From the sequence record MG748548: a stretch of 64,000 nucleotides of DNA; one strand, given 5' to 3'. The notes under the pieces are model-generated. The model was not told the origin of the DNA. It saw nothing but the letters and a program-made list of their open reading frames with translations, and did not search any database. The position numbers were made by a program, and so were the translations under genes. The DNA comes from Escherichia phage EP335. This document shows, one piece after another, positions 43,417 through 61,327 of this stretch; within the stretch, counting starts at the first letter, position 1, and every line of letters begins with the position of its first letter.

Positions 43417-43634
43417 TTCACAACCTTAAACTTAAATGTTGTTGGGTGGTAGTAGTGTAACCTGTTTATTGTATGCTTAGTCTCATGATACAGGATACAA
43501 GAGTGGCACATTGAATGGTGCAAACAGGTTACTGGATTACGTTTGAAATTGGCAATAAGCTTCCGCTTGTTACAGAAGCTACATGTTTTGTGTAAGTCCA
43601 TTAACTCTCCAGAGTTTTCCTTAGAGCTGACCAA
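43413..43634 (-). CDS. small Cys/His-rich protein
   Basis: ORF track 73 aa (CSFC...CLHHSMCHSC). Confidence 0.35.
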   Translation of the reverse strand: MVSSKENSGELMDLHKTCSFCNKRKLIANFKRNPVTCLHHSMCHSCILYHETKHTINRLHYYHPTTFKFKVVK

Positions 43635-44257
43635 GAAATTGGGTAGAGTTTAGCCATCTCTTCATCTAATGACTGAGCAAACAGTCGAACTTCATACTGA
43701 GCATGGGATGATAGTCGTTGACGACACAATTCAAACCAGCCATACAAACTACCAGTCCATACCCACTCAGTAATCATCCCCTGAGGAAGAACAAAGCGAG
43801 CTTGCTCTGGTGCAACAAATTCAATTAATTTGTCATAGGCTGCCAGTGAAGCCTCATACGCATTATTGATTAGCATTAATGCTTCGGCTCGTTCTCCGTT
43901 GACAAGCTGTGTCCCTGAACCTGCATGGAGGTCCGAAGGTCTCGCAAAAATCTCTTTAGGGATGAAGACTTCAACTGCTCCATCTTTATACCGCCGGGAC
44001 ATTTCGTTCCACGAGAATCCAACCTGATGTTTTTGTAGTTGACGAGCTATTGCAATTGGAGCTTTACATCGAAAAGATACTTGAGGGTGTCTGAACGGAG
44101 TACAGTGTTTCTCTCTGGCAAGAAAGTTGATTAATCGAGTATCACGATCATTCAAATCACCCTCTCGCACAACACCGAAAGAAACTCTTGCAGCATTAAC
44201 AACTGTTTTATCACTACCCATAGCTTCAATCAATGTTGCCTTCAATTGTTCATTCAT
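43601..44257 (-). CDS. thyX: flavin-dependent thymidylate synthase ThyX-like
   Basis: ThyX-type signature region ARQLQKHQVGFSWNEMSRRY (SxxxxSxRY present; canonical RHR replaced by KHQ) and C-terminal ARFVLPQG...GWFELCRQRL..HAQYEVR. Confidence 0.65.
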   Translation of the reverse strand: MNEQLKATLIEAMGSDKTVVNAARVSFGVVREGDLNDRDTRLINFLAREKHCTPFRHPQVSFRCKAPIAIARQLQKHQVGFSWNEMSRRYKDGAVEVFIPKEIFARPSDLHAGSGTQLVNGERAEALMLINNAYEASLAAYDKLIEFVAPEQARFVLPQGMITEWVWTGSLYGWFELCRQRLSSHAQYEVRLFAQSLDEEMAKLYPISWSALRKTLES

Positions 44258-44732
44258 ACTTCAACTTCTCCTTGTTATAAGCAATCTCTGCTTCCTCTGG
44301 AGTGTGGAAAGTTCCCAAATGTTTAGTCTTTCCGCCAACTCCGATGATAGCTCTGAATTTTGTACCACTCGCCGTCTCTCTGATATAGACACCCATTGGG
44401 AGCTTTCCAGCTTTTCCGGCTCTGTTATATTGTTTCCTGTTATGACAGTTTGTAGATGGGTCAACATCTCTTAGGTTTTTAAGAGAGTCATCCAGTTTAA
44501 TCTGGTTGATATGATCAATCTCAAACTCAGGCATCTTTCCATAAGAGAAAAACCAAGCTAAACGACAAGCTCTGTAAGATTTTCCTTCGTAATAAATATA
44601 CCTGTAACCTAGTGTAGAGATACACCCAGCAATATTCCCAGCCACCCGTCTACCTTTGGTATTCTTCCACCGAAAGATTCCAGTTTCAGGGTCATAAGAC
44701 AGGTCTTCTTTTATCTTGTCAGTTAATATCAA
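44250..44732 (-). CDS. HNH homing endonuclease with AP2-type DNA-binding domain
   Basis: HNH motif EIDHINQIKLDDSLKNLR...NCHN and AP2-like GVYIRETASGTKFRAIIGVGGKTKHLGTFHTPEEAEIAY. Confidence 0.7.
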   Translation of the reverse strand: MILTDKIKEDLSYDPETGIFRWKNTKGRRVAGNIAGCISTLGYRYIYYEGKSYRACRLAWFFSYGKMPEFEIDHINQIKLDDSLKNLRDVDPSTNCHNRKQYNRAGKAGKLPMGVYIRETASGTKFRAIIGVGGKTKHLGTFHTPEEAEIAYNKEKLKYE

Positions 44733-44994
44733 AAGCTGTTACCAAGAAAGATTTCAGGTTTGCTTCAGTCTGCATACCAGATAAGCTATAATGTGCACCG
44801 CTGTTACGGTTAGGTACGATGAAAGCAGGAATACTTCGTACACCGTATTCGATAGCTCGATCACGACCATTGCCTTCGAGGATGTTAACCTCTTCAACTT
44901 CTAGGTTAAGCTCTTCAGCTAATTTGTTGAGGGTAGGGGCCATTGCTTTGCAAGGAGCACACTGATTACTATAAAACTTAATAACTTTATTCAT
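44719..44994 (-). CDS. thioredoxin-like protein
   Basis: CxxC active site in FYSNQCAPCKAMAPTLNKLAEE. Confidence 0.6.
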   Translation of the reverse strand: MNKVIKFYSNQCAPCKAMAPTLNKLAEELNLEVEEVNILEGNGRDRAIEYGVRSIPAFIVPNRNSGAHYSLSGMQTEANLKSFLVTAFDIN

Positions 44995-45174: not shown

Positions 45175-45360
45175 TTAAGCAGTGATCAGGTGGAGGATAA
45201 ACGGGATGACTACAGAGATGATAACCCAAGCAACAGATGCGATTTGAATTTCAGCTTTCTTGTCAGGAGTTTCTTCAATAAGTTTCTTGCTACCATAATA
45301 AACACCTCCGCCAATGAGAAGTGCCCAAATACTCCAAATGATTGCTGATAACATATTCAA
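45175..45360 (-). CDS. small membrane protein with two TM segments (holin-like candidate)
   Basis: 61 aa; hydrophobic segments AIIWSIWALLIGGGVYY and VAWVIISVVIPFILHLI. Confidence 0.45.
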   Translation of the reverse strand: MNMLSAIIWSIWALLIGGGVYYGSKKLIEETPDKKAEIQIASVAWVIISVVIPFILHLITA

Positions 45361-45412
45361 TTCCTTATAAATAAGTTCGCCCTACCTCGGATTAGGAGAC
45401 AGGGCGGAGGTT

Positions 45413-46000
45413 TTAGTATGAGACGTCACTAGAGTGTGACATGTTACTTTTAACGAAGTAGCAATACTTGCCTAACCCTTCGTTGATTTCTTGGAGCATG
45501 CTCTGGTCAACTGGATACTCGCTCAAACATCCATCGAACTCATCCATTTTGTCAATCATGCACATTAAAGACATGCACATATCAGAGAGCATACCATCCA
45601 TATCTAGGTCTGCATTTCCTTCAGAGAACCAAGAGTGTGATAGGTAGTTAGAAGCAGTTGCATCCACCTTAATACAGTGGAAACGCATACGTTCAGCTAT
45701 CCGATCACCTGTCTCACGAGCATAATCTTCAAGCTCATCAAACATTCCATGAACACCCTGAAATCCTGCACCAGATACGTTCCAGTGATAATTCTTAGCT
45801 TTGATATGCAAGAGTTCTAAATTAGCTTGAATACCGCATAGAATGTGTTCTAGGCTGTTTCCACTAATCATCCCTTGCATACGCTCTAAACGGGAGATAG
45901 AAGAGTCTGTTTCACGTAATACATCACGGAAAGAAGTCTCTTTTGTTAGAGTTGGTAGGTCGAAAACATTGTGATTAGGCATTAGGATTCTCTCCATCAA
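45413..46000 (-). CDS. dps: Dps/ferritin-like protein
   Basis: Dps signature LHIKAKNYHWNVSGAGFQGVHGMFDELEDYARETGDRIAERM. Confidence 0.7.
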   Translation of the reverse strand: MMERILMPNHNVFDLPTLTKETSFRDVLRETDSSISRLERMQGMISGNSLEHILCGIQANLELLHIKAKNYHWNVSGAGFQGVHGMFDELEDYARETGDRIAERMRFHCIKVDATASNYLSHSWFSEGNADLDMDGMLSDMCMSLMCMIDKMDEFDGCLSEYPVDQSMLQEINEGLGKYCYFVKSNMSHSSDVSY

Positions 46001-46304
46001 GTTCTACTGAGTTCGCAACATTGCGTGTAATGTTATCCATTACCTGTTGGGTGATAACGATGCAGTTCTGTGGGTCAACCGACTTAGAACGTCCCATCTC
46101 AGGGTCATACACTTTAACGCGCTTTGCTGTAGAACCAGTTACCTGTAACACCTTGAGAAGATAACCCTGATTCCCGATAGACCATGCAACAACATCACGA
46201 TTCTTGATGAATCGACCAAGCATATCACGATGATAGAACTGCTGCATAACCTTTGATTTATTAATCTCTTCGGCTGGCGGAGCCACTTTACTCAAATCTA
46301 ACAT
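45975..46304 (-). CDS. hypothetical protein
   Basis: ORF track 109 aa; overlaps Dps start. Confidence 0.35.
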   Translation of the reverse strand: MLDLSKVAPPAEEINKSKVMQQFYHRDMLGRFIKNRDVVAWSIGNQGYLLKVLQVTGSTAKRVKVYDPEMGRSKSVDPQNCIVITQQVMDNITRNVANSVELDGENPNA

Positions 46305-46335: not shown

Positions 46336-46350
46336 ATACTGTATATACAT
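46336..46350 (-). promoter_or_regulatory. promoter-like motif AATGTATATACAG (minus orientation)
   Basis: reverse complement of 46336-46350; about 35-45 nt upstream of minus-strand gene start 46304. Confidence 0.3.
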
Positions 46351-46376
46351 TTGAGAGTGATCATATCTACTACCAA

Positions 46377-46583
46377 CTAGTAGAAAACTGCTTTGGATAT
46401 AAAAGAGCCAGTATTAGGGTCCTCATGCCATCGATGCATAGTGACTTTTGAGATAACCTTGCAAGCTTTCAAGTTTTTCTTGGTGAGACGAGCTTCTTCT
46501 CTGGTGTTGAATAACTTGATGGTATCTTTACCCACACGCTCTTCTACTCTCCACACTATTCGTATAGCCCACATCTTTTTCAT
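46377..46583 (-). CDS. small protein, paralog family A (member 3)
   Basis: 68 aa; shares MKK.W.V.I...TRE.AR..KKNLK...Y pattern with two upstream neighbours. Confidence 0.45.
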   Translation of the reverse strand: MKKMWAIRIVWRVEERVGKDTIKLFNTREEARLTKKNLKACKVISKVTMHRWHEDPNTGSFISKAVFY

Positions 46584-46798
46584 TAGTAATGTACCTTTCC
46601 GCTGATATAAATACGGCCTGAGGTATACTCATAGCCCTTGAGGATTTTGACAGAGGAAACACTATTCATCCCACTGAGAGATTTCTTAAGATTACGTGAA
46701 CCCTCTCGTGTTTTCTGATAGGTCATGGTTGTATTACCATTATCCCACTCTATCTTAACTATCCAAATTCTTTTCATAAGACCTGCTCTCTTTACCAT
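46583..46798 (-). CDS. small protein, paralog family A (member 2)
   Basis: 71 aa (internal start MKRIW possible); ATGA overlap with neighbour. Confidence 0.45.
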   Translation of the reverse strand: MVKRAGLMKRIWIVKIEWDNGNTTMTYQKTREGSRNLKKSLSGMNSVSSVKILKGYEYTSGRIYISGKVHY

Positions 46799-46995
46799 TA
46801 GTAGTACACCTTGCTATTGGCGAAAAAAGCACCTTCGCTATTCACAATAGCTTTTCCTAATGTAACCTTGTTAAGTCTAAAAGTAGACTTGTATTGATTT
46901 TTGACCCTACGTGCGTGATCTCGAGTCTTAACAAAATCTACAGCTACCAAGTCTCCAGTCATGTTATCATGTACACGAACAATCCACTTTTTCAT
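46798..46995 (-). CDS. small protein, paralog family A (member 1)
   Basis: 65 aa MKKWIVRV...; ATGA overlap with neighbour. Confidence 0.45.
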   Translation of the reverse strand: MKKWIVRVHDNMTGDLVAVDFVKTRDHARRVKNQYKSTFRLNKVTLGKAIVNSEGAFFANSKVYY

Positions 46996-47529
46996 TTACA
47001 CACCCTTAGAAGCAACAACACCTTCGCTACCATTGTAGCGACCTTTAACTGCATAGGAATGCTCACCAGCATGTGAATGCTCAAACATCACCATCTGACC
47101 GACACGCATACCAGCACGAACCCGTAAGCTGTGGTGCTTGGTTACGTTATGGAACTCAAATGTCAGCTTGCTATTGTTAAACCCAGCGTCTGCCCAACCA
47201 GCGTGCAAGTGGTTCAAGCCACAACGAGCCATTGAAGATCGTAGAACAAACAAGCTGGAGATGTTATCTGGGAGGTTGAACTCTTCCATTGAGTGAGCCA
47301 AGAAGAATTGTCCCGGAGTGATGATAATGCCATCTTCAGGGATTTTTACTTCTTTCCACTTGAGGTTTTCTTTCGCATCAATGTCAACAATCCCATCAGC
47401 CTGTTCTTCAATAAGGATAGTATCACCAACACGGATATCCACACTAGCAGCGTTAACATACTTATGCTCCGCATCCAGAAAACCGTTGTCGATAACGTCG
47501 TGTAATTCCATGCTTCCTAATAAACTCAT
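46996..47529 (-). CDS. dcd: dCTP deaminase / dUTPase-superfamily protein
   Basis: motif SSMARCGLNHLHAGWADAGFNNSKLTFEFHN...GMRVGQMVMF. Confidence 0.7.
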   Translation of the reverse strand: MSLLGSMELHDVIDNGFLDAEHKYVNAASVDIRVGDTILIEEQADGIVDIDAKENLKWKEVKIPEDGIIITPGQFFLAHSMEEFNLPDNISSLFVLRSSMARCGLNHLHAGWADAGFNNSKLTFEFHNVTKHHSLRVRAGMRVGQMVMFEHSHAGEHSYAVKGRYNGSEGVVASKGV

Positions 47530-47543
47530 TCTTATTCCTTATG

Positions 47544-48824
47544 TTAATCTGCGATACTGTCGCTTTCGTCCATCCAGACTGGACTGTTAACCTGTCCTAG
47601 ACGACGAGCTGATGTTTCGTTAATAGAGTTAACCCCTGCTGTGCGAGGGTTTGTGTACCACGGTCGAGCTATGGTGCCCTCTCGAATCACTTGGTTCGTT
47701 TCGACATGCCATCTGTTTGATACCGTGTTGGCTCCGAAGTTACCACCCGCCCCACCACTAACAGGTACAGCTTGAGCTGGTTGGTTTACTCGGTTAGTTC
47801 CTGCCCCAAAGGCTGCTGCAAATTCAGACACACGTGCATCAAATGAAGAACGAACACGCTGAGTAGGTGATATATCATTTCGTGTATCTACTGCACGAGG
47901 CATAGCCCAAGTATCATCTGTTGAGATATCAGGGGTAGGCTCTTGCTCTAGAGGTTGAAGATTAGCTGTCCATTGACTATTCAGTATACGATAGAAATCT
48001 GCACCATAACCACTTCGGATAACATCCTCTCTGACACCAAAGAAGCGACTGATATCCCCACCGATTCGGGCTAGTTTGTCATTGTATGCAGGTATGATTA
48101 TTCCACCCTCTGTCACTAAATCAGAGACACGACTTGTTGTAAGTGGTGAAGTGATCCAACAATAATAATCAGTAATGTGACCATCGTATCCGAAGAATGC
48201 AATCTCTGCATCAGGCCATTTCTTGTGGACATATGCCACTTCACGGTTAGAACAAACAGGGATTGCACCTGTTTCAGTCATTGCATAGAAGCCGTCAGAA
48301 GAGAACCAAAGTGAATCTAGTGCTAAGAATCCACGACACACGCTCGGGAAAGTAGCAGCCAGCGCCCCAAGTGAGGTAGGTTCATTGAACATTAACTGAA
48401 TCTTTGCACCCTGATAATTAATCTCTAGGATATCTACAAAATTCAAAGAAGACCCAGGGGCATATTGATTATTACTTCGTCCAATATCCTGCTCAATGAG
48501 AAGAGATCTTGTTTCAACACCATGAGCCTCTGCCCACTCTTTGAAATCTTCAAGGAACAAGCGAGCCTTAGCTCGCCACATCGACCGATCAATTACAGAC
48601 TGTCTCGGCAATCCACCCTCTGTAGTGATGAGAAAGATATCAATGTCGTGAGGTTCACGCGTCTGAAAGATTGCATCCCTAACAGCACCACCTGCAATGA
48701 TAGGGTACACACCATCAGGGATTAAACGGTTTGCAATCAACTCGTTAATTAACGTAAGACCAGACACAAGCTGCGGACTATCATCAATCCGTCGACGAAT
48801 TAGTGCATTAGGGATATTATACAT
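47544..48824 (-). CDS. Pol-beta superfamily nucleotidyltransferase with CCA-adding-enzyme-like head motif and G/N/A-rich C-terminal region
   Basis: IIAGGAVRDAIFQTREPHDIDIF (GGxVRD ... DxD); C-terminal ~120 aa low complexity. Confidence 0.55.
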   Translation of the reverse strand: MYNIPNALIRRRIDDSPQLVSGLTLINELIANRLIPDGVYPIIAGGAVRDAIFQTREPHDIDIFLITTEGGLPRQSVIDRSMWRAKARLFLEDFKEWAEAHGVETRSLLIEQDIGRSNNQYAPGSSLNFVDILEINYQGAKIQLMFNEPTSLGALAATFPSVCRGFLALDSLWFSSDGFYAMTETGAIPVCSNREVAYVHKKWPDAEIAFFGYDGHITDYYCWITSPLTTSRVSDLVTEGGIIIPAYNDKLARIGGDISRFFGVREDVIRSGYGADFYRILNSQWTANLQPLEQEPTPDISTDDTWAMPRAVDTRNDISPTQRVRSSFDARVSEFAAAFGAGTNRVNQPAQAVPVSGGAGGNFGANTVSNRWHVETNQVIREGTIARPWYTNPRTAGVNSINETSARRLGQVNSPVWMDESDSIAD

Positions 48825-52273: not shown

Positions 52274-52512
52274 AAAGAAGTTACTCCCTTATCTTCTTGA
52301 GCGATAGAGATGATACGACTCACACACTGCATTGAGTACTCATCACCACGCTTTAGGAACGTTACGATAGCAGAGAATTGATTACCAATCATCCGCTCAT
52401 TTGTAATACCGAACTCTTTGCAGAGTTCTTTCAGTTTGCTACGAGAACCAATAATCAGAGGTTCTTTTTCTTCAGTCATTCCACGACTAATCAAATCTTC
52501 AATAGACAACAT
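52270..52512 (-). CDS. hypothetical protein
   Basis: ORF track 80 aa. Confidence 0.35.
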   Translation of the reverse strand: MLSIEDLISRGMTEEKEPLIIGSRSKLKELCKEFGITNERMIGNQFSAIVTFLKRGDEYSMQCVSRIISIAQEDKGVTSL

Positions 52513-52535
52513 AATTCCATTCCTTGGGGGTTTAA

Positions 52536-53753
52536 TTAAAAGTTTACTGCTTCACCATCAACGGTAGTTACTGATGCAAGACGACGAACACGGCCAATCT
52601 GTTCACGACTGATTGGAGTATTCCAACCAGAGCGATAGAAGTTGCGACCACAGAAGAACACAACAACATTAGAAGCAATCCGTCCGTAGTTACGATCAGG
52701 GTGATTGATGTTAGCAAGATAATAACCACGGGTCAAGTTTGCATTTTCGTTGATATGCCGAGCATTTGGTGCAGTTGTTTCAGCTTGCATCATTTCAGGA
52801 ACATCTTCTACGATAGGCTCAACCGTAGGTTCATCACCAGCTAAAGCAAAGTTCTCATCAGCAGCCTCTTCTGCATCATCTTCCAGCTCCACAGTTTCCT
52901 GAATAACTGGCAGAGGGTATGCTACACGATACTCAGGGTTTTGACCACGGAGAGATTCAACATACTGCAAGAAGTTGTGCTGGTAAGTTTCCAGAGTTGT
53001 ACCAGTCAGGCCCGGAGCGGTATTAACTTCTAACACCCACGCTTCCTCACCTTTACTGATAAGATCAACAGCACCAAAGTTAAGACCGAGTGCTTGTACT
53101 GCTTTGTGCGCTTGAATTAGAACCTGATCAGGTGGTGAATCATTAAAAGAGTTGGAATAAACCCAACCAGTGTGGTGATTACGAACATCTTCACGATAGT
53201 CAGGGTTATCACGATACCCATTACGACGAATCTTCTTCTGGACGTAAGTAATAACACCTTCAAAAACATGCACACGCCATTCACGACGTGGACCAGTGAT
53301 TGCTTTTGTATACAGAGGAGCCTCAGCAACACCCTCACGAGGAAGACGAACAGTGATGCCTTCACCAGAGTGACCATTAAGTACACCACGTTCGTAAACA
53401 ATACTGTTTTGGTTCCAGTTAAGTGCTTCATCTCGGTTAGTGGTATACTCAACAGTCTTGACTTCCGCAAGACGCATGGCATTGAAAGCTGCAACCTTGT
53501 TAGCCGCACGATTCAATGCTGCTACGTTGTTCAGAACCGTTGCACCTTCGAAGAAGGATTCTTGATAACGACGGTTTCCATAGTTGATAATCACGTCACC
53601 AGAACGAGCACGGAATCGGCTGGTTCCATCAGACAGAAGAGCCATTGCGTTGGCATTGATTCGGTTGTCACGGAGATGTTGATTCAAGCTGGATACCAGA
53701 GCATTAACAGAATCAGAAGGGCCATAAGGGAGAACACGGATACGAGTAGTCAT
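52536..53753 (-). CDS. ATP-grasp family ligase with ~130-aa C-terminal extension
   Basis: ATP-grasp hallmark WVLEVNTAPGLTG near residue 260; acidic linker then extra C-terminal domain. Confidence 0.55.
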   Translation of the reverse strand: MTTRIRVLPYGPSDSVNALVSSLNQHLRDNRINANAMALLSDGTSRFRARSGDVIINYGNRRYQESFFEGATVLNNVAALNRAANKVAAFNAMRLAEVKTVEYTTNRDEALNWNQNSIVYERGVLNGHSGEGITVRLPREGVAEAPLYTKAITGPRREWRVHVFEGVITYVQKKIRRNGYRDNPDYREDVRNHHTGWVYSNSFNDSPPDQVLIQAHKAVQALGLNFGAVDLISKGEEAWVLEVNTAPGLTGTTLETYQHNFLQYVESLRGQNPEYRVAYPLPVIQETVELEDDAEEAADENFALAGDEPTVEPIVEDVPEMMQAETTAPNARHINENANLTRGYYLANINHPDRNYGRIASNVVVFFCGRNFYRSGWNTPISREQIGRVRRLASVTTVDGEAVNF

Positions 53754-53755
53754 TT

Positions 53756-53989
53756 TTAGATACCTTTAAGTTTAAGAATTTCGTTGCGAGTACGTTGGAT
53801 ACGTTCTTCAAGAGTATGATAATCAAAGATGCACATCTCTTCTGCTTCATCAGAAGGTGCATCCATTAAACCCATAGCAATCGGATACACCTTTCGCTGT
53901 TCCGTTGTCATGTCCTGTAGCCGGAGTCGTTGATACTCCAGCAGGGTAATTTTCGGCTTGTTAGTTTCCTTGCTTGACATGAGGCTCAA
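53756..53989 (-). CDS. hypothetical protein
   Basis: ORF track 77 aa. Confidence 0.35.
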   Translation of the reverse strand: MSLMSSKETNKPKITLLEYQRLRLQDMTTEQRKVYPIAMGLMDAPSDEAEEMCIFDYHTLEERIQRTRNEILKLKGI

Positions 53990-54194
53990 CCTTGATACCT
54001 TTCAGTTTCACATAGTCAGCCAGCACGTTGTTAATAACTGTTGGGAAAGGAATCTCAACAGGTGCATTAACTAACCCACCAATACCCTCTTGCATCCACT
54101 TCTGGATTGCACGAAGGTTATCACATCCTGTGCTTGTCATTGGAATACGGCGAGTGGTTACAACGTTATCCAACATCATCTTACGAATTTCCAT
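53961..54194 (-). CDS. hypothetical protein
   Basis: ORF track 77 aa. Confidence 0.35.
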   Translation of the reverse strand: MEIRKMMLDNVVTTRRIPMTSTGCDNLRAIQKWMQEGIGGLVNAPVEIPFPTVINNVLADYVKLKGIKVEPHVKQGN

Positions 54195-54204
54195 AATACA
54201 CCTC

Positions 54205-56223
54205 TTAATTATGACCTTTACAGTGCACTGAATCGCACACCACTTGATTGGTATTGTTTAGTGTGCAGAGTTCTGCATCACGCCACGGAATCTTTTTAAA
54301 ACAGACTGCACAAAACCCAAGAGTAGACCAGAGGGCTTTTGTGAAGGTTGCTGATCGGTTTCCATCGAAGGACGCAACTGTTCTGGTAATTGAGACTTTT
54401 GACTCACGAAAGGTTTCCGCTGCTGGAGCGGGTTCCTCCTTTGGGGTAGTCACTGCAATAGCATAAACACCACCCCAACGCTTCTCAATGTAAGCACCGA
54501 ACACATCTTCCAGAGTGATTTCACTCTTACGTTTGGTTGAGGATTCCATGACAATCATGTTGTCCAGAATCTTTTGATCAACACGAAGAGCTACTTCAGG
54601 ACGTCGAGCACTTGTTGTATCAACATACTTGGTCCAAACATAACCCTCTTTCAGAGTGACTTGAGTTGCTTGCTTCTTTGCTTTATTAGCACAGATTTTA
54701 CAAACATCGTCACCACGAAGTTTACTGAACTCTTCATCAAATTCAAAGTCAGACTTCACTTCGCCGCACACTGAACAAACGCCGATAGGAATCTCATCCT
54801 CTTCAACGTCTTCCACTTGCTTCTGGATAGAATCAAAACAAGCTTTATGCCAATATGCTTGGTATGCGAAGATCGCACTTGGTGCTTCTTTCCAGTCAAT
54901 GTGCTTATCACATCCACCACAATCACCGTGGGAATGGGCTTCCCAGAACTTACGAGTGATAGTCACCCCATTCTTGCTGACAAAACTATCCTCTGCATCA
55001 AAAGGGATATCATCATCGAAATCAGCTGTAGTGCTTTCCGGCTCCTTTTTCGACAAGTCAAAGAAGTGACCAGAGATCAACACCAAACGAATCATGCTAT
55101 TAACTTCAGAGATACAGCCAACCGTACCACGGTAAACCATATGCTTGTTCTTAAGAGCAGCTTCGTAATCAGTTTGCAGGATGTTATGAACATCACCCTC
55201 AATATACTCTTGAGCTTTGTCATCATAAATATAACCAACCATCTTACCGCGATCGGTATCTTTATAACAAACAAACTCGTGAGGAATAATATCAACCTGC
55301 ATATCACGACGGACATCAACACCTTTGTCAGAGGCGATCTTGTTTTGTTTCAAGATTGCTTCACGACGACGTACATCACCTGCGGTTACGCCGGGCTTTC
55401 TTTGCTCGTCGCTGTTCCCGTTTACGTAACTTTTTGTCACGCTTGAGTGATTGTTGCTGTAGCTGTTCGAGTAATAACTTCCCCAACGCGTTGCTACCGT
55501 AAAAACCGGGAGTTCATGTACGACCTCCTCTACCAAAGTCATCTTGTTGTCAGAAACATCAAAGATGTACTCTGTACCGACTTTACACTCAAAGTGCTCA
55601 TCAATTCGGTTCTTGTGGCTCTTAGAACGCTGAAGAATCCACATTAGCATCGCTTCTTCTGAAGCACCAAACCATGAAGTTCCCAGACGGGCCAGATGGA
55701 AAGGACGTTCATCGTTACGAATGATGTGAAGACGGTTATCACTTGCATCATGCCAGATTAGAGTGAATGCACCATCCAACTTCTGAATAGTCTCTGCTGC
55801 ACCAATCTTGTTAATAGAGTGGCAGATGTTCTCACTATCAACCTCAAAAGCCTTACTGTCAGGCAGAAGGTCTTGATCAACTAAGGTTCCGTTATGAACC
55901 AGAGTAATATTTCCGTGAGAGAATGGGTGAGCGTTACGTGAGTTAATAGCGCCTTTCGTAGCATGTCGGCTGTGACCAACAATCCATGAAGGAGGCACTG
56001 TGTAATTAGTAAGGCCAGTTGTCAGCTCGGTGTACTCTTTCTGTAACATGAAAGCATAGGAAGGCAGTGCTTCTTTGTAAGAGAACACAGATCTTTCGCT
56101 TTTACGCTGACCGAAAATACCAGTTGAGTGTTGACCACGAAATACACCAGCATAAAGAAGCTGGTTGTAAATATCTAAGTCATAACTTGAGAGGCTTCCA
56201 CCTGCTAATACGATACCACAAAT
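54205..56223 (-). CDS. class-II (Ntn) glutamine amidotransferase domain protein with Cys-rich C-terminal domain; probable non-canonical ATT start
   Basis: in-frame upstream sequence K-I-CGIVLAGG...HSRHATKG...NAHPF...VHNG; Cys codon 56218-56220 preceded by ATT with aggtgga 7 nt upstream; track start is GTG 56088. Confidence 0.6.
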   Translation of the reverse strand: MCGIVLAGGSLSSYDLDIYNQLLYAGVFRGQHSTGIFGQRKSERSVFSYKEALPSYAFMLQKEYTELTTGLTNYTVPPSWIVGHSRHATKGAINSRNAHPFSHGNITLVHNGTLVDQDLLPDSKAFEVDSENICHSINKIGAAETIQKLDGAFTLIWHDASDNRLHIIRNDERPFHLARLGTSWFGASEEAMLMWILQRSKSHKNRIDEHFECKVGTEYIFDVSDNKMTLVEEVVHELPVFTVATRWGSYYSNSYSNNHSSVTKSYVNGNSDEQRKPGVTAGDVRRREAILKQNKIASDKGVDVRRDMQVDIIPHEFVCYKDTDRGKMVGYIYDDKAQEYIEGDVHNILQTDYEAALKNKHMVYRGTVGCISEVNSMIRLVLISGHFFDLSKKEPESTTADFDDDIPFDAEDSFVSKNGVTITRKFWEAHSHGDCGGCDKHIDWKEAPSAIFAYQAYWHKACFDSIQKQVEDVEEDEIPIGVCSVCGEVKSDFEFDEEFSKLRGDDVCKICANKAKKQATQVTLKEGYVWTKYVDTTSARRPEVALRVDQKILDNMIVMESSTKRKSEITLEDVFGAYIEKRWGGVYAIAVTTPKEEPAPAAETFRESKVSITRTVASFDGNRSATFTKALWSTLGFCAVCFKKIPWRDAELCTLNNTNQVVCDSVHCKGHN

Positions 56224-56297
56224 TTTCTAATCCACCTGAAGGGTAAACCCTTTCATCTAATTAACCTTTAGTTGTGCCCCTTTCGAGGCACCCATTG

Positions 56298-57398
56298 TTA
56301 CAGCAGTCGTTCTAACTGAATTTCCAAGTGATCTGGAATATATTCAGTGACGTTGTTATCGGAGACGCCAGATTCACGCATCATGTTGAGCATGCTACGA
56401 ATCTGTCCTTCTGTTGCTTCACGAGTTTCACTAATCTCTGTTTCATACAGAGCCATGATCTCGTTATGAACATCTTGAGCATTACCACGGACATATCCGA
56501 GGAAGCCATAGAAGTCAGACATATCACGAAGGGATACAACTACCGACCCACTATTATCAAGAGTTTGTAAACGAATACGCCCAACCTGACGGACAGAACG
56601 ATTACGACAGAACAGGATATCACGAGCCAGACGATAACCACTATCAAGATCTTCGTGTCTTGGGGTGTAGTCTAGAGGTAGGTGAGGGAGCATAGGGTCA
56701 AAACGAACCCTGTTAAGCATCTCAACAAACTCTTCATTGTCCATCTCTGCATTTTCAACTGCTAATTTCTTAAGAACCAAGAAGCGGTTTACCAGATTTA
56801 ACAGCTGACCTTTCTTCCACTTAGGCTCTGAGATACGGAACTCAACAGAACCGAACTGAGCCAGAGGAAGTAGGTTAAGTGATGTGTACTTATCCCAACG
56901 ATCAACAATGTGTCGGAAGAAGTTCTCACCTTCGTAGTTAAATGCTTCAGAAGCATTCATTACTTGAGCCTGCACTACCGCAAAAGCAGGACAGAAATTA
57001 CTACGGTAACGGTGATAACCAGAGCACTTAAACATCAATGCTTCATAGAAAGTCCACCCAAGGATAACTTTCTTAACGATATTGCTATCAGCATCTCGCA
57101 TATCCATATGAACGTGAGTGGAACAGCGCCAAGTCCCTTCTGCTTCGGACTCCATCACTGCCTCACTCAGATTGTTGATAGCGTCAAACAGTTCTACACC
57201 ATTGTAAGGGCGAGAACAGACCATTTCACATCCGTTGCGAAGCGAGCCATCCTCTGTACATTCCCACATATCTGCTTCGATATGATCGTCACCTTCAAGC
57301 TCCAGCTCAATACCAATACCGCATTGGAATGCGATACTCGGATGTGCTTCACTCAGACGATTACTACGGTATCCAAAAGCTTGCGCTACAGTTGTCAT
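56298..57398 (-). CDS. amidoligase-like (glutamine-synthetase-fold COOH-NH2 ligase) candidate
   Basis: N-terminal G.E.E strand motif FQCGIGIELELEG and His/Glu-rich core; assignment tentative. Confidence 0.4.
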   Translation of the reverse strand: MTTVAQAFGYRSNRLSEAHPSIAFQCGIGIELELEGDDHIEADMWECTEDGSLRNGCEMVCSRPYNGVELFDAINNLSEAVMESEAEGTWRCSTHVHMDMRDADSNIVKKVILGWTFYEALMFKCSGYHRYRSNFCPAFAVVQAQVMNASEAFNYEGENFFRHIVDRWDKYTSLNLLPLAQFGSVEFRISEPKWKKGQLLNLVNRFLVLKKLAVENAEMDNEEFVEMLNRVRFDPMLPHLPLDYTPRHEDLDSGYRLARDILFCRNRSVRQVGRIRLQTLDNSGSVVVSLRDMSDFYGFLGYVRGNAQDVHNEIMALYETEISETREATEGQIRSMLNMMRESGVSDNNVTEYIPDHLEIQLERLL

Positions 57399-58009
57399 AA
57401 CGACTCCACTAACTCCACAGTGTATTGGTTAAAATCACTTTGAATATGCTTGAACACATCAAGCAGTTGTACGGTCTGACGACCACGGCTGTCATGTCCA
57501 GCACCGAGAAGCACGCGACCAACGTGTGCTCCTTTATAATAAACAAGACCATCGGAAGGGTTGATGAAGATAAAGCGAGTCAACAAACCTTCAAAAGATG
57601 GATTAAACAGGTTATAAACCATCTCACCGGAGATGTTACGACCAAGAGAAGTTACGCCACGGAGTTTGTTACCCATCAACCCCTTAGCTCGCTGACGAAC
57701 TGGATTGATATGGGTCCAACTTACCATGTTACGACCATGTTGAAGATAACCAACATCAGGGGATTCCAGAATCAGGTTAGGGTTGAACACTCCAATCTGA
57801 ACTGTTGTACGGTTAAACCCTGAGTCTGTTTTAACCCAACGCTCTGCTTCGAACATCAAAGCCATCTCTGCTTCGTGAGAGAAGTCATCACGAGAGAACT
57901 CGCCTTGTTGGAATACGTTCATAACAAACAATGGGATGTTTAAGTTCCCACGTCTTTCAGCAATCCATGTCCCACAATAGTAATGAGAGAAGTCAGTTAC
58001 TAAGCTCAC
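57395..58009 (-). CDS. hypothetical protein in amidoligase cluster
   Basis: ORF track 204 aa, GTG start; 4-nt overlap with upstream gene. Confidence 0.45.
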   Translation of the reverse strand: MSLVTDFSHYYCGTWIAERRGNLNIPLFVMNVFQQGEFSRDDFSHEAEMALMFEAERWVKTDSGFNRTTVQIGVFNPNLILESPDVGYLQHGRNMVSWTHINPVRQRAKGLMGNKLRGVTSLGRNISGEMVYNLFNPSFEGLLTRFIFINPSDGLVYYKGAHVGRVLLGAGHDSRGRQTVQLLDVFKHIQSDFNQYTVELVESL

Positions 58010-58018
58010 GATAACCCC

Positions 58019-58906
58019 TTACGCTACCTGTAAACGTTTCAAGAACACATCTGCTTCACGAACATCGTTGGTGTTGATGATCTGGTGCAGCTTTTCAATC
58101 GGAAGGCGAGAGTGGAGGCCCATCAAGAACTCCATGTCGCTGTTTTGTACAACCTTGTCAACTTGATCATACACAAATTGACGATCTTCTTTCTTGCCAA
58201 TCCAGAAGTTTGACAGAGAGCGATACTCAATGCCATAAGGTTTGTAACGGATTGCGGATGCTTTACCGTATAGCTCTTTACGACGAGCATCACCGTCCAT
58301 CAGAACAGCAGGCAATGACAGGAAGTAATCACACAGAACGCCCAGCATCATCTGAACCTTCTTATTCACATCCAGAGAGCCAGTGACACCGATATGCACA
58401 TGACCGCCTGCTGTACGCAAGCCCTTGTTCTCTGAAGTTGGGGAAGCATTCTTTTGACCAGTGAATGCGTTGAAGTCTGGAGTACAACCAAACACGAAAG
58501 CGGACGGATGGAATGATTCCAATTCTTCTTTAGAGAAGATATGAGAACTTACACCCAGAGCCGCTTCCATGTCCTGTTTCTTCAGAACTTCGTTGGTAAG
58601 ATCAATACCACGCTGAACGTTGTCATTAAACGCTTCAAAACCTTGTTGTGGGTTGATATCAAATTCAGCAAGAACGTTGTCTTCTTGGAGACGAACATCC
58701 TTAGCCAGATCGATTTTATTTTCTTTAGAACAGCCCAGCTTTCCAGCAACAGAGGTGATGATGCCAGAAGAAGTACGAACAAACATTTCAGGGTCAGTGC
58801 CGATTAAAAAGATGCGCTTAGTCATTGTAGTATTCCACCAATTCTTTAAAGAGGGATGTGATTGTTTCTTTGTTGCTCTCTGTACTAGAGTCACAACGAC
58901 TTTCAA
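58019..58906 (-). CDS. hypothetical protein in amidoligase cluster (possible second ligase-like enzyme)
   Basis: ORF track 295 aa; internal start MTKRIFLIGTDPEMF plausible. Confidence 0.45.
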   Translation of the reverse strand: MKVVVTLVQRATKKQSHPSLKNWWNTTMTKRIFLIGTDPEMFVRTSSGIITSVAGKLGCSKENKIDLAKDVRLQEDNVLAEFDINPQQGFEAFNDNVQRGIDLTNEVLKKQDMEAALGVSSHIFSKEELESFHPSAFVFGCTPDFNAFTGQKNASPTSENKGLRTAGGHVHIGVTGSLDVNKKVQMMLGVLCDYFLSLPAVLMDGDARRKELYGKASAIRYKPYGIEYRSLSNFWIGKKEDRQFVYDQVDKVVQNSDMEFLMGLHSRLPIEKLHQIINTNDVREADVFLKRLQVA

Positions 58907-59747
58907 TACGTTCTAAGAAACCATTTACACTGATGTTAGAAATCTTTTCATCAAGAGATGAACGTTTCCAACCAGTGCTCATAGACCAAACTCTCAAAAA
59001 GGTACTCATTGAAGAGTACATCTCTGCGTTTTGGTTTCGACGACGAGCAATACGACGAAGGGCTGCACGGTCATGGTTTCGGATATACCCTGATGTGTTA
59101 TCACCTTCTCCAACTTTGTTTTGCAACCAAACATCGGTTGAAAACTCATCTGTATTGCAAATGATCGGAAGAAATGCAAATGCTGGTAAGTCGTGCGGTA
59201 AGTAGATAGATGTTGATTCATCAGTGGAATCATTAACTCTATCAAAGTTAAGCTCCCCAAAGAAATCCTTACTTACCCCAGCAAGAGCTAGAGCTAATCC
59301 AACACGACGACGGAATAGCCATTCTTCTCTATCATCAACTCCCTCTGAAAGAAAATCCATAGATTCATACTCGCAATCGAGATAACTACGGAAAGTCATT
59401 AGTCCTGTAAAAACTTTATCTGCTGCGTGTTCACGAAGATCAACCTCTACACTATTAGCAGAAGTGATTGTGAACATATCTTTGTACATAGAACAGGAGT
59501 TTAGTACATCAGCAGTATCCAACAAATGAGACTCAATCTCATCCATGTTGCAGTGAGGCCAGTAGTTAATCTTACCCATGTGTGCTGTGAAGTTATCTAA
59601 GCTGGTTCGATTACTCAGGCCATTAATATCACGAGTGCTGAAGTTGTGCATAGAGTTGTGGATACCGAAACAGACTCGGCTCGTAAAACTCTGCTCACCC
59701 ACCATATCACTAACTTCTACAGGAGCTAATGTTGTGGAAATTGCCAT
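58818..59747 (-). CDS. hypothetical protein in amidoligase cluster
   Basis: ORF track 309 aa. Confidence 0.45.
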   Translation of the reverse strand: MAISTTLAPVEVSDMVGEQSFTSRVCFGIHNSMHNFSTRDINGLSNRTSLDNFTAHMGKINYWPHCNMDEIESHLLDTADVLNSCSMYKDMFTITSANSVEVDLREHAADKVFTGLMTFRSYLDCEYESMDFLSEGVDDREEWLFRRRVGLALALAGVSKDFFGELNFDRVNDSTDESTSIYLPHDLPAFAFLPIICNTDEFSTDVWLQNKVGEGDNTSGYIRNHDRAALRRIARRRNQNAEMYSSMSTFLRVWSMSTGWKRSSLDEKISNISVNGFLERIESRCDSSTESNKETITSLFKELVEYYND

Positions 59748-59759
59748 TGTCTTTAACCT

Positions 59760-60953
59760 TTAATTTCCTAAGAAAAGTTTCGTGAGAATTGAATCCCACT
59801 CCGTACTAGGCAGTACATCAAAACTGCTATTATTTGACAGATTCGACTGTTGAAAGTGGCGAATCATTGTGTAAGTATTAACACGGTCATTGCCAAATCG
59901 AGTATACAACAACTCATTTCGAGTCTTGTCTGATAGGGAAATAGCTTTGGCAAAAGCTACAATCAGCATAGGCTCTTTGAGGGCACGATCTTGAAGGGCT
60001 TCCGGTTGAAGAATAGGTAAGAACATTGAGTTGTTTACATACAGCTCATGCTCTTCGTGTCCGGGAACGTCATACCAAACACTCGAATAGTCTTCATCAC
60101 GGAAATGTCCTTCACCAGCCATATATGACGGTTGACGCCACGCAGTCTGGCGAGGTTCTGCCATATTAGCTCCGATGCCCACTGTGTACAGTGTTACAGG
60201 GAACAGGCAGTTATCGTATTCATTACCAGTAAAGGCAACTCGTACTTCGCCAAACAGATTCTCTTTTGCGTTAATCAATCGAGAATAGGCAAGAGCTTGT
60301 AACGGAGACCAATCGTCCATAAAGAGCTTATCAAGGAAAGTCCACACATTTGCTTGCTCATCTTCTTGATAAAACAGACGATTAACCATAAGATAGAACA
60401 GGCAACGATCAGCAGGCACTGGTTCAGATACATCTTCTGTTACCACACCCATAAAACCTTTTTCATGCCAAACAAGACATGAAGGACGATCTTTATCCAT
60501 GAAAGCTTCAAGTGCTTCCATAACTGACTTGACAGTTACATCAGGTCGTTCACGATATTCAGCCCAAAGCTCAACTGCGTTCTTAGGCTTTTCATCCCCT
60601 ACATCAGCGTGATAGAAAGCATATTGGAAGGAGATGATGTTGTTGCTCCCATCCTTTCCACGCATAGGGATATGGGTTCCAGAGTTCCAGATAATACGAA
60701 TATCTTCCATTGACATTAAACTGCTTAGGAGTTCATCGCTGCCAGAGCTTTGCATCAAGCTATAGCTGCTATCCCAAACATGGACATACTGCGTCCAGCC
60801 TTCATTGGCTTCGTAGGTAATGGGGTCGTAATAATCACTATCTTCGTCACAATCATCACCACCGTGGTAGTTGCTGTGCTGAAGAAAGCCATAGCAAGGA
60901 GGCCAGACTGTTACTACATTGTCCTGCTTATCCTGCAATGTTACTGGAAACAT
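59760..60953 (-). CDS. hypothetical protein in amidoligase cluster
   Basis: ORF track 397 aa. Confidence 0.45.
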   Translation of the reverse strand: MFPVTLQDKQDNVVTVWPPCYGFLQHSNYHGGDDCDEDSDYYDPITYEANEGWTQYVHVWDSSYSLMQSSGSDELLSSLMSMEDIRIIWNSGTHIPMRGKDGSNNIISFQYAFYHADVGDEKPKNAVELWAEYRERPDVTVKSVMEALEAFMDKDRPSCLVWHEKGFMGVVTEDVSEPVPADRCLFYLMVNRLFYQEDEQANVWTFLDKLFMDDWSPLQALAYSRLINAKENLFGEVRVAFTGNEYDNCLFPVTLYTVGIGANMAEPRQTAWRQPSYMAGEGHFRDEDYSSVWYDVPGHEEHELYVNNSMFLPILQPEALQDRALKEPMLIVAFAKAISLSDKTRNELLYTRFGNDRVNTYTMIRHFQQSNLSNNSSFDVLPSTEWDSILTKLFLGN

Positions 60954-60964
60954 TTTGAAACCTC

Positions 60965-61327
60965 TTATTGTTGTTTGATCAACTCAACGGACTTACGGAT
61001 GTAAAGAATATCACGGAAGTTACGGTAGTTGTTCATGAATTGATGCTTCTGGAACTCCGCTTCAAGCAGAGATTCTTTGGCACTTTCATAACTCTTACGG
61101 GCAAGATACACAACCCGCTCTGGTAATACGTTTGCACGACGGATGATATACTTGTGAGCTTTCATATTGCTCTGCTCACGAGATATCTTACTTTTCGCTA
61201 CCGTAATGCCATTTGCAAGCCAAACAAGCTCTTGCTCAAGCTCTTCGTTGGACATTCCACCGAGGTTTGATGCAACCTTGTTCAGAGTTTCAATGTTAAC
61301 GTTGCCCTTGATGGGACGTGTATTCAT
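60965..61327 (-). CDS. hypothetical protein
   Basis: ORF track 120 aa; aggag RBS. Confidence 0.4.
   Translation of the reverse strand: MNTRPIKGNVNIETLNKVASNLGGMSNEELEQELVWLANGITVAKSKISREQSNMKAHKYIIRRANVLPERVVYLARKSYESAKESLLEAEFQKHQFMNNYRNFRDILYIRKSVELIKQQ

Follow-up and report, generated by a model that had tools for sequence, protein, structure and literature searches.

Escherichia phage EP335 encodes what is predicted to be a genuine, catalytically competent mini-ferritin of the Dps family, and its most likely role, one that we consider probable, is the removal of Fe2+ and H2O2 during infection, which would protect replicating phage DNA and the enzymes of nucleotide synthesis. The window, that is, the whole stretch of 64,000 nucleotides analyzed here (sequence record MG748548), belongs to a Nieuwekanaalvirus (Gordonclarkvirinae, Mtkvariviridae) that is about 95% identical to the phages KBNP1711 and KarlSchell_Bas89. 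The identification of this gene product as a phage Dps is already known: it has been annotated since 2008 in phiEco32 (gp67, recorded under phi32_67 as "DNA binding protein, member of the Dps family") and is mentioned in the papers on phages SU10 and Privateer. Elsewhere in GenBank, most of the labels read "DNA binding protein", many read "integrase", and one reads "ferric iron binding protein". A literature search found no study of the function or structure of any phage Dps, the C3 clade included. What is added here is a residue-level check of the active site, the fold, the mode of selection, the differences in the tails and the pore region, and the unit formed by a promoter, a partner gene, the Dps gene and a hairpin. 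The features of the window that bear on the argument are the following.

43601..44257, minus strand: flavin-dependent thymidylate synthase ThyX (PHROG 85, E=9e-61)
44719..44994, minus strand: thioredoxin (Pfam PF00085, E=2e-13; PHROG 22; synteny)
45378..45406, minus strand: terminator-like hairpin (11-bp stem, 7-nt loop) with a U-rich stretch after it, 7 nt past the Dps stop codon
45413..45982, minus strand: Dps-family gene, 189 amino acids plus stop, 21.5 kDa, pI 4.75 (open reading frame, Shine-Dalgarno sequence, orthologue starts)
45683..45796, minus strand: ferroxidase-centre block, residues 63-100 of the Dps protein, with K63, H66, W67, H78, D82, D93, E97, R98 and R100
45845..45982, minus strand: N-terminal extension of 46 amino acids, specific to Gordonclarkvirinae in alignments, net charge -2
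45975..46304, minus strand: gene for a basic protein of 109 amino acids, phrog_10984, pI 8.8 (open reading frame and PHROG match)
45983..46000, minus strand: in-frame extension upstream of the Dps gene, with TTG at 46000 and ATG at 45997, inside the upstream gene
46342..46352, minus strand: motif AAATGTATATA, one mismatch from the motif of the phiEco32 phage sigma factor (gp36), tAATGTATAtA
46342..46376, minus strand: promoter region upstream of the gene pair, near-invariant in five Gordonclarkvirinae
46996..47529, minus strand: dCTP deaminase (PHROG 1663, E=8e-59; synteny)

The longest open reading frame at the locus, 45413..46000 on the minus strand, is uninterrupted and encodes 195 amino acids from a TTG start. 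A preliminary description of the window had assigned a phage-encoded Dps-like ferritin to positions 45413-46000 and had quoted the signature KNYHWNVSGAGFQGVHGMFDELEDY...DRIAERM, and this exact string is present in the translation of the reading frame. The frame itself is real and lies on the minus strand, a strand that the description had left unstated, but its upstream boundary probably has to be moved, position 46000 being an in-frame TTG. Translation probably begins with the ATG at 45982 and yields a protein of 189 amino acids (MPNHNVFDLP...), because it is preceded, 7 nt upstream, by the Shine-Dalgarno sequence GGAGAG and because the orthologues start at the equivalent position, with MHNN or MHKN in phiEco32, SU7, KBNP1711 and metagenomic sequences. 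The stretch 45983..46000 is probably not translated, given that it falls inside the upstream gene and that the orthologues begin at the equivalent of 45982; in the Bas89 record, the annotated start is the ATG equivalent to 45997.

The assignment to the Dps family is borne out by profile, sequence and structure comparisons alike. Among the checks proposed in the preliminary description was a search with ferritin and Dps profiles, and in this search the Pfam Ferritin family (PF00210) is matched above its curated cut-off (33.7 bits versus 24.5, E=4e-8), with the alignment restricted to residues 58-101; the same profile is matched by all 22 family members and is the sole Pfam match of the phage protein. 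PHROG 3636 is matched over the full length of the protein (E=3e-53). In a phmmer search against the PDB sequences, Dps structures are retrieved over residues 47-180 (E=1e-10), with Dps2 of Mycobacterium smegmatis at the top; every significant match is a Dps, and the non-Dps entries all have E values above 0.1. The AlphaFold2 model, built with 22 homologues, has a pLDDT of 81.7 overall and of 86-97 in the core, and displays the Dps topology, namely a four-helix bundle (helices A, 44-68; B, 74-101; C, 128-153; and D, 157-179) with a short helix in the BC loop (110-115) and without a fifth, C-terminal helix (E). Among the best 50 Foldseek matches of this model in the PDB, all are Dps proteins, with a probability of 1.00, and the superposition on M. 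smegmatis Dps2 gives an rmsd of 1.3 Å over 134 residues. The predicted fold thus matches Dps structures alone, and not those of another four-helix-bundle family, the outcome that had been named as fatal to the identification. In classical ferritins and bacterioferritins, the di-iron site is located within a single subunit and a fifth helix is present at the C-terminus. Membership in a classical 24-mer ferritin, bacterioferritin or other four-helix-bundle family was rejected because the fifth helix is absent and because Dps proteins are the best matches in both sequence and structure.

Within this family, the phage protein is a divergent member, as indicated by the restriction of the Pfam alignment to residues 58-101 and by NCBIfam scores far under the cut-offs. 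The equivalog model of the E. coli-type Dps (NF006975) gives 34.5 bits, far below its cut-off of 114, so that the protein belongs to the superfamily or family but is not an equivalog of the host Dps. An exhaustive profile search yields 5674 relatives at E<=1e-3 and just 7 at E<=1e-30, a distribution in which the phage proteins form a small divergent clade of a very large family. The label "integrase" carried by many GenBank records was rejected as well, there being no recombinase domain and Ferritin being the only Pfam match; the correction has practical weight, since safety screens for phage therapy reject carriers of integrases.

In sequence and model, the ferroxidase centre is complete. The nine listed residues of the block from K63 to R100 occupy columns that are invariant in an alignment that includes E. 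coli Dps, and seven of them correspond one to one to E. coli residues (K63, H66, W67, H78, D82, D93 and E97 to K48, H51, W52, H63, D67, D78 and E82, respectively). The alignment that the preliminary description had called for reveals no loss: H66, W67, H78, D82, D93 and E97 are the same in every phage homologue, including the distant ones from Privateer, SE131, GAP52 and LAh_8, and with the Dps fold and every ferroxidase-centre residue in place, the original reading of the protein as a phage-encoded Dps-like ferritin stands. Among 138 diverse Dps representatives, H66, W67, H78, D93 and E97 are conserved in 133-137, whereas the positions of K63 and D82 are variable; the protein also fits the PROSITE pattern H-[FW]-x-[IV]-x-G-x5-[LV]-H-x3-[DE]. 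In the alignments and the model, H66 and H78 from one subunit and D93 and E97 from its twofold partner are predicted to form an inter-subunit ferroxidase centre, with W67, K63 and D82 nearby. Since both halves of this interface site are conserved, the protein would be expected to form at least dimers.

In Dps proteins, a ferritin-like threefold pore lined by acidic residues admits the iron. The region around the start of helix D, the E. coli D141 region, which presumably contributes to this pore, is altered. Tyr156 replaces the Asp that is found in 118 of the 138 Dps representatives (E. coli D141), Asp159 stands where 108 of the 138 have Thr (E. coli T144), and Ser161 corresponds to E. coli D146; E155 and E165 lie nearby. 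Farther along, Tyr175 replaces a Trp that is conserved in 122 of the 138 proteins (E. coli W160). Given the substitutions at Tyr156 and Tyr175, iron uptake may differ from that of other Dps proteins. The phage protein further contains 6 Cys and 14 Met residues, none of them invariant.

The closest solved structure is that of M. smegmatis Dps2 (PDB 2Z90, 4M32-35 and 8HWZ), which shares 27-28% identity with the phage protein, the four-helix bundle with the BC helix, and a near-identical block, HWNV.G..F...H...DEL.D.ARE..D.IAERMR. The phage protein differs from it in its N-terminal extension, which is longer and unrelated, in its short C-terminal tail with a final Tyr, in the 6 Cys and 14 Met residues, and in the altered pore-region motif. 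The identity to E. coli Dps (MG1655) is 19% overall, with the ferroxidase residues aligned one to one. Among phages, Bas89_0061 is 99.5% identical to the protein from the window, and the orthologues in phiEco32, SU10 (CDS67) and SU7 are 81-83% identical; phiEco32 gp67, SU10 CDS67 and Bas89_0061 occupy the same locus, with the gene for the 109-amino-acid protein upstream and those for thioredoxin and ThyX downstream, and show no essential difference from the gene described here. The proteins from more distant phages (Privateer gp068, SE131, GAP52_062 and the Aeromonas LAh phages) are 33-41% identical and have the same ferroxidase residues and the same nucleotide-metabolism neighbourhood; in contrast to the protein from the window, they are only 146-156 amino acids long, carry short basic N-terminal tails and no C-terminal tail, and retain the Asp or Asn in the pore region, and their genes often lie beside those for NrdD and NrdG.

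The core of the protein is under strong purifying selection, with dN/dS values of 0.03-0.05 in pairwise comparisons with phiEco32, in which dS is saturated. A pseudogene or relic is ruled out by these values. Recent capture from a host was likewise rejected, in view of the 19% identity to E. coli Dps and of a GC content that is not anomalous (41.1% against 42.9%). Both findings favour a phage gene of long standing that has been passed on vertically over one acquired recently. The allele in the window is of the Bas89 type and is separated from the KBNP1711 allele by a dN of 0.13 with saturated dS; the two alleles have thus diverged although the genomes are about 95% identical overall.

The lysine-bearing N-terminal tail of E. 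coli Dps binds DNA, and a basic N- or C-terminal tail is a trait of the DNA-binding subset of Dps proteins, not of every Dps. The N-terminal extension of the Gordonclarkvirinae proteins comprises two conserved elements, the M-H/P-N-x-N-V-F-D-L-P motif at the extreme N-terminus and an S-I-S-R-L-E-x-M helix, together with a hypervariable linker; it is modeled by AlphaFold2 with low confidence, with a helix at residues 28-40, and its dN/dS is about 0.3-0.4 versus 0.03-0.05 in the core. Compared with the E. coli tail, which has a net charge of +2, it is longer and has a net charge of -2. The phage protein as a whole is acidic, with a net charge of -15, and the basic DNA-binding tail is absent, the extension containing no lysine cluster and the C-terminal tail (MSHSSDVSY) having a net charge of -1. 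Direct, nonspecific coating of DNA is therefore unlikely to be the main activity of this acidic protein. An N-terminal capsid-targeting peptide shared with other phage proteins was considered and rejected, no other open reading frame of the window having an N-terminal FDLP-like motif.

Directly upstream, the stop codon of the gene for the 109-amino-acid basic protein overlaps the Dps start by 8 nt, which makes translational coupling of the two genes likely. The partner has no match in Pfam, NCBIfam or PADLOC, is basic across lineages (pI 8.8-10.1), and is more conserved than Dps, with a mean identity of 82% and a dN/dS of 0.02-0.05. In Privateer, LAh_8, GAP52 and a metagenomic phage of 65-82 kb, its homologues immediately precede the Dps gene and overlap it; in SE131, the partner gene is located about 1.3 kb upstream of Dps and adjoins the thioredoxin gene. 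In the phage collection, the partner is present in 129 records and Dps in 133, with essentially the same host distribution. This co-occurrence could be explained by vertical co-inheritance alone, both being core genes of the C3 podophages. The AlphaFold2 model of the partner (pLDDT 64.5) consists of a helix and a small five-stranded beta-barrel, for which Foldseek returns weak, generic small-barrel matches (Tudor, KOW, PWWP and the integrase C-terminal domain; best E about 0.01), and none at E<=0.001.

The pair is set in a conserved transcriptional and genomic context. The predicted promoter falls within the 72-nt gap upstream of the pair and is near-invariant even though the synonymous sites of the flanking genes are saturated; a promoter is annotated at the same site in SU7, and according to the SU10 paper, the first middle gene, CDS68, is preceded by a sigma70 promoter that carries this motif. 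The hairpin that follows the Dps gene was found by a terminator scan and has a predicted RNA folding energy of -16.8 kcal/mol (z = -3.8); its stem is kept in five phages. Thioredoxin is a core gene of the C3 podophages and is always found near Dps and the partner; ThyX adjoins Dps in SE131 and in the metagenomic phage L012. The other neighbours include a nucleotidyltransferase and T7-like replisome genes, and related phages add NrdD and NrdG, an ATP-cone protein or thymidine kinase to the neighbourhood. The pair is thus flanked by a middle promoter and a hairpin, both conserved, in the cluster for dNTP synthesis. A PADLOC search for defence and anti-defence genes gave no match for Dps, its partner or the two small open reading frames downstream.

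The Dps gene was detected in 96 Gordonclarkvirinae records and in 37 records of more distant phages, mostly other C3 podophages. Dps is present in essentially all podophages of the C3 morphotype, always in the cluster for dNTP synthesis and replication. In the SU10 paper, CDS67 (with a DPS domain), CDS68 and thioredoxin are among only eight middle genes common to all C3 phages. Dps genes of gut phages have been described by Benler et al. (PMC8008677), who do not mention the C3-podophage clade. The phages in which that study found a Dps and proposed tolerance of oxidative stress during infection, namely "Gratiaviridae", "Flandersviridae" and Lactobacillus phages, represent unrelated lineages with anaerobic or Gram-positive hosts.

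The location of the gene in the dNTP-synthesis and replication cluster, behind a middle-gene promoter, fits the role suggested in the preliminary description, in which the protein might protect replicating DNA or manipulate the iron or redox state. The SU10 orthologue belongs to the middle block downstream of the first middle promoter and is produced during infection, as mass spectrometry of lysate preparations has shown. Under the scenario that we consider probable, the promoter would be read by the host sigma70 and the phage sigma factor, so that the gene for the 109-amino-acid protein and Dps would be transcribed at the early-to-middle switch as a coupled pair bounded by the hairpin. The Dps dimers would assemble into 12-mer cages, in the manner of the hollow dodecamers with 23 symmetry that are characteristic of Dps, and Fe2+ would be bound at the dimer interfaces, oxidized preferentially by H2O2 and stored as a ferric mineral, such that both Fenton reagents are removed; Dps proteins prefer H2O2 over O2 for the oxidation of Fe2+. 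The beneficiaries would be the naked replicating phage DNA and redox-sensitive enzymes, namely ThyX, thioredoxin and, in the relatives, NrdD and NrdG. The flavin of ThyX can leak H2O2, and NrdD and NrdG are sensitive to O2. Furthermore, phiEco32 shuts off host (sigma70) transcription. A Dps supplied by the phage itself would matter because, with host transcription shut off, the OxyR-controlled dps gene of the host could not be induced. That oxidative stress does occur during infection is indicated by YerA41, a phage whose lytic infection can induce the host dps, catalase and peroxiredoxin (PMC7354516). Counting against the protective role, most phages do without Dps, and phages of the Kuravirus type lack the O2-sensitive NrdD that accompanies Dps in the relatives.

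Alternatively, the protein might act mainly by binding or condensing DNA, either that of the phage or the host nucleoid, perhaps tethered by the basic partner, with iron chemistry being secondary. The family name and the "DNA binding protein" annotations in GenBank point in this direction, as do the short basic N-terminal tails of the Dps proteins from distant C3 phages (net charge +3 in Privateer, +2 in SE131 and +2 in GAP52) and the partner itself, which is basic and has a predicted small barrel with a weak resemblance to folds of the KOW, Tudor, PWWP and integrase C-terminal types, several of them known for nucleic-acid binding. However, the pI of 4.75, the net charge of -15, the net negative extension devoid of a lysine cluster and the neutral to acidic C-terminal tail are hard to reconcile with such a role, a purely architectural function leaves the invariance of the ferroxidase residues unexplained, and the model of the partner has low confidence (pLDDT 64.5, no Foldseek match at E<=0.001); we regard this alternative as unlikely. 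Somewhat less likely still is a two-component unit in which the acidic ferroxidase cage is held by the partner on phage DNA or on the T7-like replisome, with the M-H-N-N-V-F-D-L-P N-terminus and the ...D-V-S-Y C-terminal tail perhaps serving as docking peptides; in a variant of this scheme, the same terminal peptides may instead load Dps into the prolate capsid. If true, the two-component Dps would be a replication-coupled "Fenton shield" that has lost its own DNA-binding tail.

We assign a similarly low probability to the use of the cage as an iron reservoir, which would take up host iron either to supply iron-dependent enzymes of the phage or the host or to deprive host processes of it, and not to prevent oxidative damage. 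Ferroxidase activity and iron storage would serve this purpose equally well, related phages encode the Fe-S activase NrdG along with NrdD beside Dps, and one record is labeled "ferric iron binding protein"; yet no iron-requiring enzyme was recognized in the replication cluster of this phage, a bfd-like partner for iron release is absent, and a short lytic cycle leaves little time to store iron and then release it. Nor do the tail fibres contain HxH iron-binding arrays, and for that reason a "Ferrojan horse" link, whereby Dps would deliver iron to the fibres, was rejected. Finally, packaging of Dps in or on the prolate head, where it could organize or protect DNA or enter the next cell, is in our judgment very improbable. 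In favour of this possibility, mass spectrometry of Privateer virions that had been purified on CsCl step and equilibrium gradients revealed the Dps homologue, although its function is called unverified in that paper (PMC7881722), and CDS67 was detected in SU10 phage preparations, also by mass spectrometry, with 35.8% coverage. In addition, a Foldseek search against viral models found domains of the Dps fold within proteins that come from uncultured phages and are annotated as prohead protease, a combination for which the literature search found no paper, and the terminal motifs are conserved and lineage-specific. However, the SU10 sample was only precipitated with PEG and also contained DNA polymerase and thioredoxin, CDS67 is not among the structural proteins listed in the SU10 cryo-EM study, and the gene belongs to the middle (replication) block rather than to the late (structural) block. 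Moreover, a dodecamer of roughly 9 nm presumably could not exit via the tail, Privateer, the sole phage with CsCl evidence, lacks the terminal motifs, and the N-terminal motif recurs in no other open reading frame of the window.

The removal of Fe2+ and H2O2 by a Dps-family mini-ferritin hence remains the reading that we favor. Dps is kept in every known C3 podophage with a prolate head, across hosts from Escherichia, Salmonella, Cronobacter, Proteus and Aeromonas, and its retention under strong purifying selection suggests that the control of iron and peroxide constrains lytic replication in the C3 lineage. Because Bas89, the Dps of which is nearly identical to that from the window, infects E. 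coli K-12 with a restored O-antigen (PMC11990801), knock-outs are feasible, and the phage Dps would be a tractable example of oxidative-stress protection supplied by a phage.

The Dps gene and the basic 109-aa partner gene whose end overlaps its start are flanked by two non-coding elements:

46342-46376, minus strand: promoter region containing AAATGTATATA
45975-46304, minus strand: 109-aa basic partner protein, phrog_10984, overlapping the Dps start by 8 nt
45378-45406, minus strand: hairpin with an 11-bp stem, right after the Dps stop codon

Across five Gordonclarkvirinae, the promoter region and the hairpin are near-invariant, in contrast to the adjacent genes, in which synonymous sites are saturated. 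The partner (phrog_10984) is more strongly conserved than Dps, shares its phyletic distribution, and is encoded directly 5' of it in at least four lineages of C3 (prolate-headed) podophages. The partner is predicted to adopt a fold consisting of a helix and a small five-stranded β-barrel.

The genome of EP335 is approximately 95% identical to that of KBNP1711, and likewise to that of Bas89. The Dps allele (45413-45982) is 99.5% identical to that of Bas89 and distant from that of KBNP1711 (dN 0.13, with dS saturated); the partner, compared as protein, shares 92.7% identity with its KBNP1711 counterpart. Judging from these sequence comparisons, the Dps locus is a site of allelic mosaicism among EP335, KBNP1711 and Bas89.

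Small ORFs lie on both sides of this region:

46377-46995, minus strand: three small ORFs in tandem (68, 71 and 65 aa), all matching phrog_4939
45175-45360, minus strand: 61-aa ORF, phrog_9296, just 3' of the hairpin

Each of the phrog_4939 ORFs ends at the C-terminus in V-x-Y, and the trio appears to have arisen by local triplication; it lies where the early region ends, directly 5' of the middle promoter. The only Pfam matches of the phrog_9296 ORF are weak and of the transmembrane type, which suggests that its product is a small membrane protein.

Other genes in the window include the following:

44250-44732, minus strand: HNH endonuclease, phrog_99, between the ThyX and thioredoxin genes and overlapping both
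46996-48824, minus strand: dCTP deaminase, then a 426-aa nucleotidyltransferase
about 52500-61000, minus strand: enzyme gene cluster, placed by homology to KBNP1711 gp080-gp091

The HNH gene is absent from the ThyX-thioredoxin site in both Bas89 and KBNP1711; in Bas89, an HNH gene instead adjoins the dCTP deaminase gene. The HNH genes here are mobile homing endonucleases of variable position. The BASEL paper (PMC11990801) suggests that the dCTP deaminase and the nucleotidyltransferase may be the basis of a DNA modification that accounts for this subfamily's resistance to restriction. The cluster, annotated as encoding a γ-glutamyl cyclotransferase, an S6-glutaminyl-transferase-like ATP-grasp enzyme, a GlmS-like aminotransferase, an amidoligase and a COOH-NH2 ligase, resembles a module for the formation of peptide or amide bonds, located in the early region. 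A scan of positions 1-64000 with ARAGORN yielded neither tRNA nor tmRNA genes.

Dps domains also occur in longer phage proteins. Among the profile-search relatives of the phage Dps, a 406-aa protein (P0079) combines a Dps domain with a C-terminal DUF6321, a module common to many phage proteins of differing lengths, and a 777-aa protein (P0094) contains two Dps domains in tandem. Long proteins of uncultured Caudovirales annotated as "prohead protease" contain Dps-fold domains as well (BFVD matches A0A6J7XDU5, A0A6J7WPK9 and A0A6J7WIS1); a literature search for a link between Dps and prohead proteases found no paper.

In many GenBank records of Gordonclarkvirinae, including IME267, ES17, 172-1, IMEP8 and the original KBNP1711 submission, the Dps gene is labeled "integrase". 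The gene product contains no recombinase domain, and we therefore reject this identity; the label on the Dps orthologues is an annotation error that has been propagated, and it could matter in the screening of phages for therapy.
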